Shown here: in pieces, positions 23,644-35,606 of the stretch
How the letters are laid out: the number at the start of each line of letters is the position of its first letter
How positions within the stretch are numbered: position 1 is the first letter of the stretch
Origin: Thermoproteota archaeon
GTDB lineage: Archaea > Korarchaeota > Korarchaeia > Korarchaeales > Korarchaeaceae
DNA length: 40,147 nt
Reading direction: 5' to 3'
Assembly: GCA_027491415.1 (NCBI GenBank)
Contig: JAOZFH010000020.1
Span: forward strand, 1-40,147
Program-made: the position numbers and the translations under genes
The notes under the pieces: generated by a model
Told to the model about the DNA's origin: nothing
Seen by the model: only the letters and a program-made list of their open reading frames with translations
The model's database searches: none

Positions 23644-24453
23644 TCACCCCTCCGCCGGCAGCGGCGGCGCGGATTTCGGGGCGGGCGCCCCCTCCCCGGC
23701 GGACCTCCTCGCCATCTCGATGAGCCTGGCCACCCTCTCCTCCACGCCGGGGTGCCAGGAGAACGCCCTCCTCAAGGATCCAAGCCTGCCCCTCCTGTCA
23801 GACGCGGCCAGGAGGAGGCTCTTCACCGTCCACCTTACCGCCCTGGGCGACTCCGGCAGCCCTCCCCTGTAGGCCATGGCCACCTTGACGAGGGCGCTCG
23901 CCAGGTCCAAGGGCCTCCCCGAGGCCATCGCCCCCTCCTCGTCCGCCCTGAACTCCAGCCACCTGCAGACCGCGGCCCCCAGGAGGGTCCCGAGGGGTAT
24001 GTTCAGCACGCCCTCAACGGCCGCGAACACCCTGAGGAGGGGGTGCCTTCCAGCCACGTGGGCCACCTCGTGGGCCAGAACGGCACGGATCTCGTCGGGC
24101 GTGAGGAGCCTCAGCATCCCCCCAGTCACCAGGACTAGGTACTTGCCCGGGCCCAGGAAGAGCGTCAGTGAGTTCGGCTCGTCATCCCTCAGGACGCCCA
24201 GCTCCACCTCCTGGCCCGCCCCTAGCGCCGACCTCAGGGACTCCAGCTCCCTGGAGAGGCCCTCGGGCGGGGGGTCCACGAAGTCCCTCAGCTGCCCCGA
24301 GGCCAGCCTCCCGCTCAGCACGCTCCAGGCCGCCCCAGCCGCGGCGAGCGACCCCAGGAACGCGGCTGCCCAGGCGTTCCTGAAGTATAGGGCGAGGCCG
24401 ATGGTGGCGGCCAGCGGCGAGAGGGCCGCGAGCGCCCCGAGGGCGCGGGTCAC
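23644..24453 (-). CDS. Membrane zinc metalloprotease, M48/M56 (HtpX/BlaR1-like)
   Basis: N-terminal TMs, AVLAHEVAHV (HExxH), EFRADE, LASALVK, HPGVEER; translationally coupled to the BlaI-like gene. Confidence 0.88.
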   Translation of the reverse strand: MTRALGALAALSPLAATIGLALYFRNAWAAAFLGSLAAAGAAWSVLSGRLASGQLRDFVDPPPEGLSRELESLRSALGAGQEVELGVLRDDEPNSLTLFLGPGKYLVLVTGGMLRLLTPDEIRAVLAHEVAHVAGRHPLLRVFAAVEGVLNIPLGTLLGAAVCRWLEFRADEEGAMASGRPLDLASALVKVAMAYRGGLPESPRAVRWTVKSLLLAASDRRGRLGSLRRAFSWHPGVEERVARLIEMARRSAGEGAPAPKSAPPLPAEG

Positions 24454-24860
24454 CCTCGACTGCCCTCCCCCACGGAGGACCTCTCCGCCTCTATCCTCCT
24501 GAGGATCTCTCTGAGCTCCTCTGGGCTGAGGTGAACGGCTCCCTCCTCTATTAGCTTGACCAGACCGGGCCTTCCGAGCGTGTTCACCACTCTCTTGATC
24601 GCGTCCCGGGCCACGCTCCTCTCGTACTCCTCCCTGCTGACCCTGGGCCTGTAGACGTAGTACACCCCTCCCCTGCCGGTCCTGAACTCCCGCTCCACGA
24701 GTCCCTTCCCGTGAAGTCTGGAGAGCACGGTGCCGACGGTCGTGAGCGAGAGAGGCCTCTCCCGGCTCAGCTCCTCGAAGACCTCCCTGACGGTCGCCGA
24801 CCCCCTCTTGAACAGGACGTCCATGACCCTGGGCTCGAGCGGCTCCCTCCTCCTCGGCAA
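24450..24860 (-). CDS. BlaI/MecI/CopY-family transcriptional repressor
   Basis: LEPRVMDVL...ATVREVFEEL...LSLTTVGTVLSRLHGKGLVER...YVYRPRVSREEY. Confidence 0.92.
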   Translation of the reverse strand: MPRRREPLEPRVMDVLFKRGSATVREVFEELSRERPLSLTTVGTVLSRLHGKGLVEREFRTGRGGVYYVYRPRVSREEYERSVARDAIKRVVNTLGRPGLVKLIEEGAVHLSPEELREILRRIEAERSSVGEGSRG

Positions 24861-24871
24861 CCTACCCCCAT

Positions 24872-24925
24872 CTACGACATGATGTAAGGACGTTTAAATA
24901 TTTCCCCGCTTCTACATTGTGTAGT
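24872..24925. promoter_or_regulatory. Putative BlaI-type operators in the divergent promoter
   Basis: CTACGACATGATGTAAG (24872-24888) and CTACATTGTGTAG (24912-24924, TACA-N3-TGTA) flank a TTTAAATA box. Confidence 0.6.
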
Positions 24926-32882: not shown

Positions 32883-34267
32883 GCAAACCCGTTGCCGCCC
32901 GCTCCTGCCGGGGGTCACCCATGGCGGGCGCCTCCCTCGCAGCCTTGGGCGAGGCCGCAGACCTCGTCTCCAGGGCCATCAGAGAGTCCGACTTTGCCGA
33001 GCTGGTGTCGGTCAGGGAGGAGACCCTCAGGATCTCTTCTGCCCCCGACGGATCCATTTTGGAGGATCTCTCGGTGAGGGAGCGCATCCTCGTGAAGGCG
33101 CGGGTGCGCGGCTCCTGGCTCTCGGCCACGCTCCCAGCCTCCACCCTCCCCGGGCTCCTAGAGTCTCTGAGTGAGGCGACGCCCTCCGCAGAGGCTGAGA
33201 GACTCATACTCCCTCGAATGGGTCGGGGTGTCGAGTTCGGCAACTTCTCACCGGAGGAGGATGCGGGCTACCTCTGGGAGGTCGTGACGGCTCTGGCAGG
33301 CGGGCCGGACAGCCTATCGGCCTCGTGCACGCTGAGGTCCATATCCGTCAGGAACTCCCTGGGGGTGGGGGCGGAGACCTCGGAGATCGAGACAGCGGTG
33401 GTGGCCTTCTGGCACTCCAGTGAGAACTGGTTCAGGCCGGCCGACGAGGAGGTTCTGGGCGGCTGGGCCAGGCCGAGGGACCTGGTCCGGAGCCTCGTCG
33501 AGGGTGCCGAGTCGGTCAGGTCTGCGCGGGAGGAGGGTCGAGGGGGCCTCAGGATCGTGGATCCCCCGAGGGGCGCCCCCATCGCGCTGGCCCCGAGGGC
33601 GGCCGGCACCCTCGTGCACGAACTCCTCCAACACGGGCTCGAGGGAGACGCGGTCGCGGGGGGGAGGTCTTACCTGTCGGGCATGCTGGGGGGGAGGGTG
33701 GCCCCCGAGCTGCTCACCGTGCGCTCCGGGCCCCCCCACCCGGGCTGGAGGGTCGATCACGAGGGCGTGGCCGTCGAAGAGGCGAAGCTCGTCTCCGAGG
33801 GGGTGGTCACCTCCTACCTGACCGACGTGGAGTCGGCGATCCGCCTAGGCCTGCCCCCCATCGGGTGCGGGAGGTCGGCGGGCGACGACCCACCGTCCCC
33901 GAGGGCCACGGCCCTCTCGGTGGAGCCGGTAGACGGAGGGCCGGACCTGGATGAGATGGCCTCCGAGTTCGAGACGCTCCTGCTGGTCGACAGGGCCTCA
34001 GGGGGCTCCACAGATCCTTCGAGCGGCGAGTTCAGGATCTCAGCCCCGTCTGCCCTTGTGCTCAGACGGGGTTATCCCACGGGTGTGACCCCCGCCATCT
34101 GGCTGGAGGGGAGCTGCGCCTCGGTCCTCAGGGGGCTCTTGGGCCTGGGCGGCCGCTCTGAGGAGTTCGTTACCCTATGCGCCAAGGGAGGAGGGACCGT
34201 GCTCACCAGGATCTCCAGCCCGCCCGCCGCGATCTCTGGGGAGGTGGTGCGGGTCGTCCTCGCCTGA
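32879..34267 (+). CDS. tldD: TldD-family metalloprotease
   Basis: GTLVHELLQHGLEGD (HExxxH), DHEGV, GCGRS...PRAT, C-terminal CAKGG. Confidence 0.85.
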   Translation: MSKPVAARSCRGSPMAGASLAALGEAADLVSRAIRESDFAELVSVREETLRISSAPDGSILEDLSVRERILVKARVRGSWLSATLPASTLPGLLESLSEATPSAEAERLILPRMGRGVEFGNFSPEEDAGYLWEVVTALAGGPDSLSASCTLRSISVRNSLGVGAETSEIETAVVAFWHSSENWFRPADEEVLGGWARPRDLVRSLVEGAESVRSAREEGRGGLRIVDPPRGAPIALAPRAAGTLVHELLQHGLEGDAVAGGRSYLSGMLGGRVAPELLTVRSGPPHPGWRVDHEGVAVEEAKLVSEGVVTSYLTDVESAIRLGLPPIGCGRSAGDDPPSPRATALSVEPVDGGPDLDEMASEFETLLLVDRASGGSTDPSSGEFRISAPSALVLRRGYPTGVTPAIWLEGSCASVLRGLLGLGGRSEEFVTLCAKGGGTVLTRISSPPAAISGEVVRVVLA

Positions 34268-34289
34268 CTCGGCCCTCAATAAGGGAGAG

Positions 34290-35606
34290 CGAGAGCACCC
34301 CGGAGACCTTCTGGACGGGCTCACTGGGCTGGTCGAGAGGGCCGTCGAGATCGCCCTAGGGTCGGGCGCCGAGGCCGCCGAGTGCTTCGCTGAGAGGAGG
34401 CTGGAGTCCCTGTACAGGCCGGGCCGCCCGCCGAGGCTGAGGGTCAGAGAGGGCCTCTCCCTCAGGGTGATCTTCGGGGGGAGGGTGCACTTCGCCTCCG
34501 CCTCCCTGGGGGGCTCCGACTCGGACAGCCTGACCCGGGTCCGCCGGGCCCTGGAGTACGCGGCCTCAGCGGGGACGAGGGGAGGGCGAGAGTGGCCCAG
34601 GGAGTTCTCCCCGATGTCCGGGAGCCTCCCGAGCGTGAGGACCGCGGACCCAGCCATACTGGACGCCTCGGCGGGCGAGGGGGGCACCGCCCTGGACGAG
34701 CTGGCTTCCAGACTTGGCGGCGGGGGCGAGGGGCCGACCCTGCTGGCCTCCTCCCGCGAGGTGGCCCTGGCCACGGACGCCGGGCCGATCCTGGCGGAGG
34801 TGAGGACCAGGTCCCTGGCACTGATCCACCTGGAGTCCCGGGGGCGGGCGGCCACCCTGGTCAGGGACGGGTGGAGCCTCTCAAATCTGTTGAAGGGGAT
34901 CGACGACCTGTCTCGGGAGCTCGAGGAGGTCGGAAGGGCGGAGTGGAGGCCGGCGGCCGTCTGGAGGTCGAGCCCCCGTCGGATCGTCCTCACCCCCTAC
35001 GCCCTGACCGGCCTGAGGGACCTCCTCTACCCAGTGCTCGACCCCGACCTGTCCCCGAGGTTAGACGTGCCCATCTGCGAAGTGAGGCTCGCCGAGGGGC
35101 TCTCCTTGGTCGACGACCCTGCATATCCGGGTGGCGTCCGGAGGGCGTTCGACGACGAGGGCACGCCCTCGACCCCCGTGAAGGTCCTCGACCACCGCGG
35201 CGCGAGGCAGCTCCTCACGCTGGCCAAGGCCCAGGCGAGGTCTGCCCGACCCACGGGGAGCTCAGTCAGACCGACCTACTCATCGAGGCCCTTGGCATTC
35301 CCATCCAACCTGGTCCTCACGTCGTCGGGCCGAGAGGACCCCGTGGAGCCTGAGACCGGCGCCCCGAGGCTCAGGGTCTTGGAGGGGGCCGCGGTCGGCG
35401 GGGTGGAGGCCGGGAGGCTGGAGGTGGGCGTGACGCTGGCCGTCCTCGAGGGGGAGCAGGAGACGCTGGTCGGGGGGTTCAAGCTCGTCTCGAGCTTCAG
35501 AGAGTTCTTCTCAGAGGTTCGTCCGGTGGGGCGGGAAGTGGTGGGCTGCTACGGCTTCTACTCCCCAGAGCTCGCGGTCCCGGCGCGGGCGGTCAGGCTG
35601 GAGTGA
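34290..35606 (+). CDS. tldE: TldE/PmbA-family protein, start uncertain
   Basis: The frame is open upstream of the listed GTG 34467 (DLLDGLTGLVERAVEIALGSGAEAAECF) with no ATG/GTG/TTG; VDDP...RAFDDEGTP, PTGS, PSNL; no HExxH. Confidence 0.8.
   Translation, partial: REHPGDLLDGLTGLVERAVEIALGSGAEAAECFAERRLESLYRPGRPPRLRVREGLSLRVIFGGRVHFASASLGGSDSDSLTRVRRALEYAASAGTRGGREWPREFSPMSGSLPSVRTADPAILDASAGEGGTALDELASRLGGGGEGPTLLASSREVALATDAGPILAEVRTRSLALIHLESRGRAATLVRDGWSLSNLLKGIDDLSRELEEVGRAEWRPAAVWRSSPRRIVLTPYALTGLRDLLYPVLDPDLSPRLDVPICEVRLAEGLSLVDDPAYPGGVRRAFDDEGTPSTPVKVLDHRGARQLLTLAKAQARSARPTGSSVRPTYSSRPLAFPSNLVLTSSGREDPVEPETGAPRLRVLEGAAVGGVEAGRLEVGVTLAVLEGEQETLVGGFKLVSSFREFFSEVRPVGREVVGCYGFYSPELAVPARAVRLE

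Follow-up and report, generated by a model that had tools for sequence, protein, structure and literature searches.

What does the run of genes at positions 23644-35606 of a korarchaeal contig encode, and is it intact? The window considered here is one whole contig (C63) of 40,147 bp from a Thermoproteota archaeon of the family Korarchaeaceae, whose genome (G000) comprises 1.78 Mb in 63 contigs with about 66% G+C. Among the Rfam models, the archaeal one fits the partial SSU rRNA of this genome best. A preliminary description presented this run as a complete-looking and apparently undescribed archaeal cluster for peptides made by the ribosome and modified after translation (RiPPs). Our analysis suggests, with reasonable probability, that the cluster is a member of an apparently undescribed RiPP-type family whose core comprises one or more YxxP precursors, a radical S-adenosylmethionine enzyme (rSAM) with a single Fe-S motif and a PqqD-type RiPP recognition element (RRE), and that this copy of it is probably impaired. 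The family core is shared across archaea and bacteria, and the system is rare. Three components make up the core: 1) short precursors whose N-terminal leader bears Y-x-x-P-x-hydrophobic and whose core is rich in Val/Ala/Ile/Gly and often contains Trp, 2) an rSAM that has one Fe-S motif, a Cys conserved three residues ahead of GGEP, and a tail that resembles SPASM but has lost the cluster cysteines, and 3) a PqqD-type RRE, either discrete or fused to the C terminus of this rSAM, here called rSAM2. The family is named neither by NCBIfam nor in the searched literature, which held no account of the precursor type, the enzyme signature or the gene set; supplementary cluster lists lay outside that search. 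The novelty suggested at the outset thus stands, and its particular stress on archaea has to be qualified: seven of 99 Thermococcales species genomes have a simpler version of the system.

Genes were called from an open reading frame (ORF) listing together with Pfam and NCBIfam scans of the window proteins. Read along the plus strand, the order is a PLDc_N-like gene, two pairs of ABC ATPase and ABC-2 permease genes, the small ORFs, an RRE-fused rSAM (RRE-rSAM), a SPASM piece, a GNAT gene, rSAM2, a discrete PqqD gene, a TldD-like gene and a TldE-like gene. The biosynthetic and export genes are co-oriented, and most neighbors overlap by 4-23 bases or stand less than 30 bases apart. The gene types, co-orientation and tight packing that had been noted were therefore borne out, whereas completeness and some of the gene details were not.

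The small ORFs were taken at the outset for five precursors; four of them are intact paralogous genes, and the fifth is broken. Peptide 1 (MEVSGYTPPAML...IWLAIDLTP; 28744-28875, +) has orthologues in other assemblies (P0150, P0152 and the truncated P0151). It is followed by peptide 2 (MRTYTPPALL...ALWLWLWVY; 28896-29018, +; P0147), peptide 3 (MRAYSPPTML...LVWVYVWVWAT; 29045-29173, +; P0146) and peptide 4 (MERRAYAPPAML...IIWVLGQDWGETS; 29189-29332, +; P0144). In full, the intact peptides read MEVSGYTPPAMLNLTGTGDQGVAAAVVVVIGILLIWLAIDLTP, MRTYTPPALLSLSGAVDQGAVAAAVAVIAAVALWLWLWVY, MRAYSPPTMLNITTSANVGLVTPTVAVIIQALVWVYVWVWAT and MERRAYAPPAMLNAMSDGRDLGAVILMPILIAIVIIWVLGQDWGETS. They are 40-47 residues long in total and contain no Cys; each has an N-terminal Y-x-x-P-x-(L/M) motif, with the Tyr at residue 4-6, and a Val/Ala/Ile-rich core ending in Trp. 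An alignment of the four with two metagenome peptides was gap-poor, with Tyr, Pro (+3), Leu (+6), an Ile and a Trp invariant, and their paralogy is beyond chance. The broken fifth gene (29356-29485, +) begins with the leader MERKYVPPALM..., and its hydrophobic W-L-W part (MEEKAKTVVIVALLVWLWVKVF..., 29396-29485) lies in the next frame. Its spacing from Tyr to Trp is 25 residues, compared with 30 in the four intact copies; being five residues short as well as out of frame, this lesion is not a homopolymer slip.

A strict motif scan of about 3.8 Mb, covering the collected loci and the whole genome, found ORFs of this type only here and in a group of related metagenome contigs (L100-L103). A peptide-profile search of 5.8 billion proteins returned nine matches, all of the same type (E 1e-9 to 1e-16): the four window peptides, two of the L103 type, two orthologues of peptide 1 (73-75% identity) and one truncated, fused copy. 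With the truncated P0151 included, the orthologues in other assemblies are 73-82% identical. All 21 collected peptides, from the window and its relatives, carry Y-x-x-P inside the first ten residues. P0151 itself (68 residues) is a copy of peptide 1 in which the Trp-bearing end is replaced by an unrelated sequence, weakly like a repeated gene on contigs C39 and C4, and it may represent a further, independent break in the cluster.

The second component is rSAM2 (31475-32560, +), which carries the CX3CX2C motif, a Cys98 within C-V-S-GGEP, and a SPASM-like tail without cluster cysteines. Searched as a profile against 1.84 billion representatives, it gave at least 150 matches, all of those listed at E <1e-57 and most of them 320-370 residues long. 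The signature of this wide family is CX3CX2C plus a Cys three residues before GGEP, most commonly as CLCGGEP or CFCGGEP (CVSGGEP in the window), and C-x-[CST]-GGEP predominates over all 151 sequences examined. The SPASM-aligned tail lacks cluster cysteines, with zero or one tail Cys in 84 of the 121 listed members shorter than 420 residues. A word-based protein search showed the close orthogroup to be small, with about nine clusters at 34-47% identity. A pattern scan of genome contigs gave, among the matches listed, no orthologue above 31% identity; two loci that surfaced in it, one from Thermococcales (L020) and one from an Oscillospiraceae metagenome-assembled genome (L021), were recognized as family members once the profile search had been made. 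Within its own phylum, which is small (43 species genomes in the comparison set), rSAM2 is absent from the other 42 genomes, as it is from 40 relatives. The AF2 model (pLDDT 84) has as its nearest solved folds the RiPP maturases SkfB (TM 0.66) and SuiB, then BlsE and PqqE. At the sequence level, rSAM2 matches SkfB (E 1e-32) and PqqE (E 1e-25), and YydG only at 5e-7; its top NCBIfam match is MftC, and the ESM Atlas returned only generic "Fe-S oxidoreductase / radical SAM" clusters. NCBIfam cut-offs were reached neither by any of ten sampled family members nor by two Thermococcales members.

The third component, the discrete PqqD-type RRE (32538-32882, +; Pfam PqqD E 2.7e-11, 44.1 bits, above cut-off), directly follows rSAM2 and is 34% identical to the PqqD of L100. 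Among ten long members of the rSAM2 family, four have a C-terminal PqqD fused to the enzyme, which mirrors the order of rSAM2 and then PqqD in the window. A complex prediction for the discrete PqqD and peptide 1 scored 0.29 against a mark of 0.32, in runs made without controls. The second rSAM, PqqD and GNAT had all been placed correctly, as Pfam confirmed. Overall, the features that generally define an RRE-dependent rSAM RiPP system are present: short precursor genes beside a maturase across lineages, and PqqD-like RREs in both fused and discrete form.

Do homologous loci elsewhere carry similar peptides? They do in L100-L103, in Thermococcales and in Oscillospiraceae, and the small ORFs are a conserved peptide family that accompanies RRE and radical SAM genes in unrelated genomes. 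On the metagenome contigs L100-L103 (parent contigs 5-505 kb long), the gene order begins with a discrete RRE and continues with an intact rSAM-SPASM enzyme, a precursor (MSKYSAPGMLAAGGAESESETLVAVAIGIIAVWAWVWMM..., of the form MSKYSAPGML...AVWAWVW...), an rSAM2 copy, PqqD and a second rSAM2 copy. Their rSAM-type genes overall are 40-46% identical to those of the window (45-46% for rSAM-SPASM and 46% for the second rSAM2 copy), and their PqqD proteins 33-40%. On L100, an NTP_transf_5 nucleotidyltransferase and another PqqD protein adjoin the homologous cluster (2784-4658), possibly as a second RiPP-type system, and an IS21-like transposase lies at 11543-12469. In the seven Thermococcales genomes that encode an rSAM2-type enzyme, one or two small Y[ILV]PP peptide ORFs (for example MSYVPPVGGDVG..., MGEYIPPIGEDLG... 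and MEYIPPAGGEIG...VLVAVELVAAQAAAVLANVAAAVDLVYVVV) stand directly upstream of it in six of the seven loci; the sequence of the seventh stops 237 nt upstream of the enzyme gene. At L020, which has long flanks, the genes downstream of the enzyme encode a PqqD-like protein, a small membrane protein and ABC-2 components, and a helix-turn-helix (HTH) regulator lies upstream. The shorter Thermococcales loci have the same three open frames downstream, as judged from their sequence; ABC-2 genes recur in this order of archaea. At the Oscillospiraceae locus, the enzyme is accompanied by a B12-binding rSAM, an ABC exporter, a protein with PqqD at its N terminus and a precursor (MEDQDIYISPIVDDGDNPAPMTLVAVLALAVYVFGVTVGGGVVIVEVGVGVQVGVGVYNY) of the form MEDQDIYISPIV...VGVGVQVGVGVYNY, with a YxxP leader and a hydrophobic core. 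Among the clusters compared, the window copy has the largest gene set, but carries lesions.

What chemistry might this core perform? Discrete RREs of lasso peptides and linear polyphosphorylated peptides (LPPs) are described as binding [Y/W]xxPx[L/V/I/F/A] leaders (PMC13381572). The leader motif of the window fits this pattern, and PqqD is proposed to bind the YxxP leader, whereby it would present the core to the single-cluster rSAM2. This enzyme would then abstract hydrogen from aliphatic residues, and Cα epimerization would be the most likely outcome, with the conserved Cys donating the hydrogen, as happens in the epimerases of proteusins and epipeptides. Those of proteusins are described as carrying no cluster besides the radical SAM one, together with a C-terminal RRE and a conserved Cys, and as acting on Val, Ala and Ile; PoyD epimerizes at every second position, Val and Ile are among the residues targeted in epipeptides and proteusins, and membrane channels are formed by polytheonamide (PMC8326336; PMC13012085). 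Since the architecture of rSAM2 and the composition of its putative substrates match those of the proteusin epimerases, epimerization is the leading guess by analogy, held with a confidence somewhat short of even; desaturation, or cross-linking through a C-C or C-O bond, would be the alternatives. The proteusin systems of polytheonamide and landornamide (PoyD/OspD) likewise combine one Fe-S cluster with a conserved Cys and with an RRE placed at or behind the C terminus of the enzyme (PMC8326336; PMC13012085). Val, Ala and Ile abound in the cores of both, the product here is plausibly membrane-active, and the Oscillospiraceae cluster has a B12-rSAM, as polytheonamide does. Unlike in proteusins, the window leader is about 10-20 residues long and bears YxxP, rather than being nitrile-hydratase-like or of the Nif11 type, and an rSAM-SPASM enzyme, a TldD/E pair and a GNAT are added. 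The long leader of the proteusins is thus absent, the precursors being only 40-47 residues long.

A bolder and rather doubtful extension is that the C-x-C-GGEP rSAMs are new, widespread, leader-dependent peptide epimerases and that the window products are ribosomal counterparts of linear gramicidins. Linear gramicidins are N-capped peptides of alternating L- and D-residues, with an aliphatic N-terminal half and a C-terminal half of alternating Trp/Leu, that form beta-helical cation channels. It fits this idea that peptide 2 ends in ...ALWLWLWVY, and that a distant relative ends in ...VGVGVQVGVGVYNY, with achiral Gly at every second position. The GNAT could supply the N-cap, and TldD/E, if non-specific, could degrade the L-leader as far as the first D-residue.

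The other radical SAM enzyme of the window had been described as a single RRE-rSAM-SPASM protein. Its N-terminal PqqD-like RRE and radical SAM core do share one ORF (29505-30581, +; Pfam PqqD E 2e-9, 38.1 bits, above cut-off; Radical_SAM E 1e-30), 45% identical to the L100 orthologue, but this ORF stops because of a frame change, and the SPASM domain (30575-30934, +; Pfam SPASM E 3.5e-11) lies in a different frame. The intact L100 orthologue aligns in frame +3 to nt 30521 and then in frame +2 from nt 30575. The SPASM piece matches the NCBIfam models WgkB (E 1e-12), DynA (E 3e-10) and the stand-alone GeoRSP_SPASM (E 3e-8). Among the clusters compared, the rSAM-SPASM enzyme occurs only with W-x-W precursors (the window and L100-L103), and is absent with L020, L021 and the other Thermococcales loci. 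This distribution points to the Trp motif as its target, albeit from few independent lineages, two with the enzyme versus several without. The RRE-fused enzyme would accordingly act on the W-x-W-x-W end, probably making a cross-link. The combination of RRE-rSAM-SPASM and W-x-W-x-W resembles the Trp cross-linking rSAM-SPASM RiPPs (streptide, WGK, darobactin/dynobactin, triceptides), whereas the scores lie far below the family cut-offs and a Lys/Arg partner motif is absent.

Several established classes were compared with the cluster and set aside. A lasso-type [Y/W]xxPx[hydrophobic] leader read by a discrete PqqD-type RRE is shared with lasso peptides and LPPs (PMC13381572), and the NCBIfam lasso PqqD model matches the window PqqD at E 8e-6, below cut-off. 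However, no ORF of the cluster has an Asn-synthetase-like cyclase domain or the transglutaminase-like domain of the leader peptidase, that is, the lasso cyclase and B2 protease, and a kinase and a SipW-type peptidase are likewise missing from the cluster genes. The twitch/SPASM maturases SkfB, PqqE and MftC are the best sequence and fold neighbors of rSAM2, and each is paired with a PqqD-type partner. Unlike them, rSAM2 has no auxiliary-cluster cysteines, and the window precursors lack the Cys, the E-x3-Y and, except for peptide 2, the C-terminal Val-Tyr of their substrates. A sactipeptide or ranthipeptide was excluded by the Cys-free cores of the four intact precursors. For mycofactocin (MftC, TIGR03962), rSAM2 scored 135.9 bits against a cut-off of 265; for PQQ, the two PqqE (TIGR02109) scores were 112 and 91 bits against 381, and the PqqD (TIGR03859) score 30.4 against 46.

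Next to these enzymes stand a GNAT acetyltransferase and a TldD/TldE pair. The GNAT (30942-31478, +; Pfam Acetyltransf_1 E 2.5e-13; best NCBIfam match RimI, below cut-off) would cap an amine. Its start (30942-30990, MEVEGLSYPPSGEV...) is loosely like the Thermococcales leader motif Y[ILV]PP[VIAT]G[EG][DE], which may be coincidence or a docking mimic. No similarity was detected between the GNAT and two neighbor proteins at L021, so that a recurrence of the GNAT was not supported. The TldD-like metallopeptidase (32879-34267, +; HExxxH as HELLQH; Pfam PmbA_TldD_3rd E 2e-34, 119 bits) and the TldE/PmbA-like partner (34311-35606, +; Pfam PmbA_TldD_3rd E 1.6e-11, 44 bits, and a weak PmbA_TldD_1st match) both have the PmbA_TldD fold, with HExxxH in TldD only. 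The pair named at the outset is thus present, and the TldE-like gene lacks an ATG, GTG or TTG before its first domain: the frame is open from 34089, no such codon occurs before 34467, and the start of the weak PmbA_TldD_1st match lies before that codon. GGAG precedes a CTG at 34311. This is an extra, divergent copy, the paralogue check having placed the housekeeping pair on contig C56, and it would trim the unmodified leader. It resembles microcin B17 TldD/TldE in being a heterodimer gene pair inside a RiPP-type cluster with HExxxH in TldD and not TldE, and TldD/E is described as being used in other RiPP pathways as well. Unlike the microcin B17 pair, it is very divergent (55 bits for the NCBIfam TldD model against a cut-off of 513, the equivalog cut-offs for TldD and TldE being missed), occurs in no other family cluster compared, and has a TldE without a canonical start. 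The roles given here to GNAT, TldD/E, ABC and BlaI are inferred from adjacency in this one lineage; TldD/E, GNAT and ABC found no match in the L100-L103 cluster.

Does the upstream block belong to the same system? On the minus strand, it contains an M48 (HtpX-like) membrane metallopeptidase with a HEVAH motif (23644-24453, -; Pfam Peptidase_M48 E 1.1e-15, NCBIfam HtpX models far below cut-offs) and a BlaI/CopY-family winged-helix repressor (24450-24860, -; Pfam Penicillinase_R E 2.3e-21, NCBIfam CopY/BlaI below cut-offs). BlaI/BlaR-like control with an M48/M56 protease had been suggested; the BlaI repressor and an M48 protease are indeed present, but a BlaI/BlaR1 signaling pair was rejected. 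BlaR1 combines an M56 peptidase with an extracellular penicillin-binding sensor, and the 269-residue M48 protein, despite its HExxH, has no sensor domain. Divergently, on the plus strand, follow a small two-helix membrane protein (24917-25141, +), whose naming as PLDc_N fits its type and falls just short of the Pfam cut-off (22.9 bits vs 23.3; no NCBIfam match) and whose true start may be a GTG near 24940, and then the two export pairs, which Pfam found as described: ABC ATPase 1 (25142-26113, +; ABC_tran E 2e-32), ABC-2 permease 1 (26088-26837, +; ABC2_membrane_2 E 3e-10; start uncertain within 26001-26088), ABC ATPase 2 (26834-27850, +; ABC_tran E 2e-31) and ABC-2 permease 2 (27847-28665, +; ABC2_membrane_2 E 6e-14). 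These pumps would export the product or protect against it.

The divergent promoter region holds an inverted repeat, CTACA-N3-TGTAG (24912-24924), that may serve as an operator. The 78-bp gap between permease 2 and the first precursor contains a perfect 18-bp palindrome (TTGTAGTAGCTACTACAA; 28675-28692), with a TATA-like, A/T-rich stretch and the gene for peptide 1 directly downstream. The palindrome search gave one match in the real sequence and none in any of 100 shuffles, and a regulatory function appears plausible from its position. In the 1.78-Mb genome, seven CTACA/TGTAG inverted pairs (gap 0-10) were counted, after the palindromes had already been seen, and two of them are at the promoter regions of the cluster (24912 and 28676). 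The shared palindromes are thus a regulatory lead only.

The alternative that survives best, a real possibility though a minority one, is that M48/BlaI, the PLDc_N-like protein and the two ABC-2 pumps form a module of their own for stress or efflux, inherited vertically and only adjacent to the RiPP genes. In the sister genome G004, the genes from M48 through permease 2 are retained at 97% nucleotide identity (94-98% for the proteins; 97% for the M48 peptidase) in a genome with neither precursors nor maturases. Another sister genome (G002) retains part of the block, a truncated M48 joined to a truncated ATPase 1 and then permease 1, ATPase 2 and permease 2. The nucleotide divergence of the block equals that of the flanking housekeeping DNA, and the block is absent from L100-L103. 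Its retention without biosynthetic genes suggests that it may be an independent module. Against this, sets of ABC-2 permeases and ATPases and an HTH regulator also flank Thermococcales clusters, the block has the same direction as the first precursor and stands only 78 bp from it, and TGTAG/CTACA palindromes occur at both promoters. In addition, the retention of immunity genes after loss of a toxin is a known pattern.

The same comparison bears on whether the cluster is intact. In G004, homology breaks off at 28661, 14 bases short of the 18-bp palindrome, and beyond that point only fragments of TldE remain (window 34897-35027 and 35276-35743). With the export block and the TldE remnants in G004, the common ancestor of the two genomes is taken to have had the full cluster, the biosynthetic half having been lost at least once; the cluster thus appears to be decaying in the genus. 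The "complete-looking" label did not hold, given three lesions in the biosynthetic half and the deletion of the region in the sister species; the part of the earlier interpretation that was supported is that of a conserved peptide family with an RRE and rSAMs. With the SPASM enzyme split, one precursor dead and the TldE start codon missing, the system in this genome is probably impaired.

An unlikely alternative is that the cluster is intact and functional, the frame changes being assembly or consensus errors, or else tolerated, with SPASM translated from the ATG at 30611 and TldE from the CTG. All cysteines are retained in the SPASM piece, and its own ATG has GGGAGG eight bases ahead, which makes a split enzyme conceivable; the match to a stand-alone SPASM model agrees with this, the frame change adjoins G/C runs, and the four precursors, rSAM2, PqqD, GNAT and TldD are unbroken. 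On the other hand, the five closest RRE-rSAM homologues covering at least 91% of the query are all single chains of 467-511 residues with SPASM (PqqD annotated in three of the five), the fifth peptide is shortened besides being out of frame, and the sister species deleted the region. Moreover, about 16 kb of the window was aligned with G004 at 97% identity with indels at only a few sites, placed between genes from ORF coordinates, and random assembly indel errors therefore look rare here. The lesions are considerably more likely than not to be real mutations. Programmed frameshifting as the cause of the two-frame rSAM/SPASM arrangement was dropped, nothing supporting it having been found.

That the small ORFs encode common small membrane proteins or are spurious, with the rSAMs acting on, for example, a cofactor or lipid, is very improbable: the cores do resemble transmembrane helices, high-GC DNA yields many spurious ORFs, and the best NCBIfam enzyme matches include heme, PQQ and mycofactocin maturases, but all cofactor-family scores are far below cut-offs, at least four distant lineages have this peptide type next to this enzyme family, its leader motif matches that described for discrete RREs (PMC13381572), two RRE domains lie in the cluster, and the peptide orthologues are conserved in other assemblies.

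Several points nevertheless weigh against the preferred reading of an impaired member of a RiPP-type family. The cluster is known from its genes alone, its chemistry and peptide products being predicted, and the peptides would equally pass as ordinary single-pass membrane peptides. No enzyme of the cluster reaches any curated NCBIfam cut-off. The rSAM2 was likened to PoyD/OspD by architecture, against review descriptions and not by sequence; Cys372 of PoyD may not correspond to Cys98, and the close family member P0006 has Gly in place of the conserved Cys. TldD/E, GNAT and BlaI/M48 are absent from every other family cluster compared, and the survival of the ABC/M48/BlaI block in a sister species that lacks the biosynthetic genes counts here as well.

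The surroundings of the cluster were also surveyed. Upstream lies a HEPN and nucleotidyltransferase pair of the toxin-antitoxin type (20033-20440 and 20403-20753). Downstream is a CRISPR array (36438-37138) with at least nine copies of a 37-nt repeat (CTTTCAACCCTGCCGCAAGAAGCGGCCAATCTGCTTC) at a period of 74-77 nt, similar to arrays on contigs C1, C5, C46 and C62. Beside it are CARF-type CRISPR-associated genes (37580-38530, -, and 38548-40146, +), with a Cas_APE2256 match (E 7e-28) and a weak Csx1_CARF match. The HEPN/nucleotidyltransferase pair and the CRISPR genes suggest a variable, defense-rich neighborhood. A stretch of 6.8 kb (9517-16360) with ORFs of 447, 848 and 453 residues is absent from G004, which is otherwise collinear at 95-97% identity, and 19191-23025 is far more divergent from G004 than its flanks are, with 94% identity and about 20 short indels. 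The window scanned with Rfam gave no families, and ARAGORN found no tRNAs.

What does this locus mean for the family and its hosts? No archaeal radical-SAM RiPP product was found in the searched literature, and in a survey of archaeal RiPPs, rSAM clusters appear only as mining-predicted classes, for which activation attempts failed (bioRxiv 10.1101/2024.10.07.616454). The window offers a clear picture of cluster decay, with the biosynthetic genes gone and the pumps and regulator retained in the sister species. The Thermococcales operons in four single-contig genomes (G062, G122, G125 and G140) look complete and are an obvious place for testing the chemistry. The finding supplies a precursor motif (a YxxP leader followed by a hydrophobic core) and an enzyme signature (one cluster, C-x-[CST]-GGEP, a Cys-poor SPASM-like tail and a PqqD partner) common to more than 150 archaeal and bacterial cluster representatives. 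Should rSAM2 prove to be an epimerase, ribosomal peptides with D-amino acids would be known over a considerably wider range.

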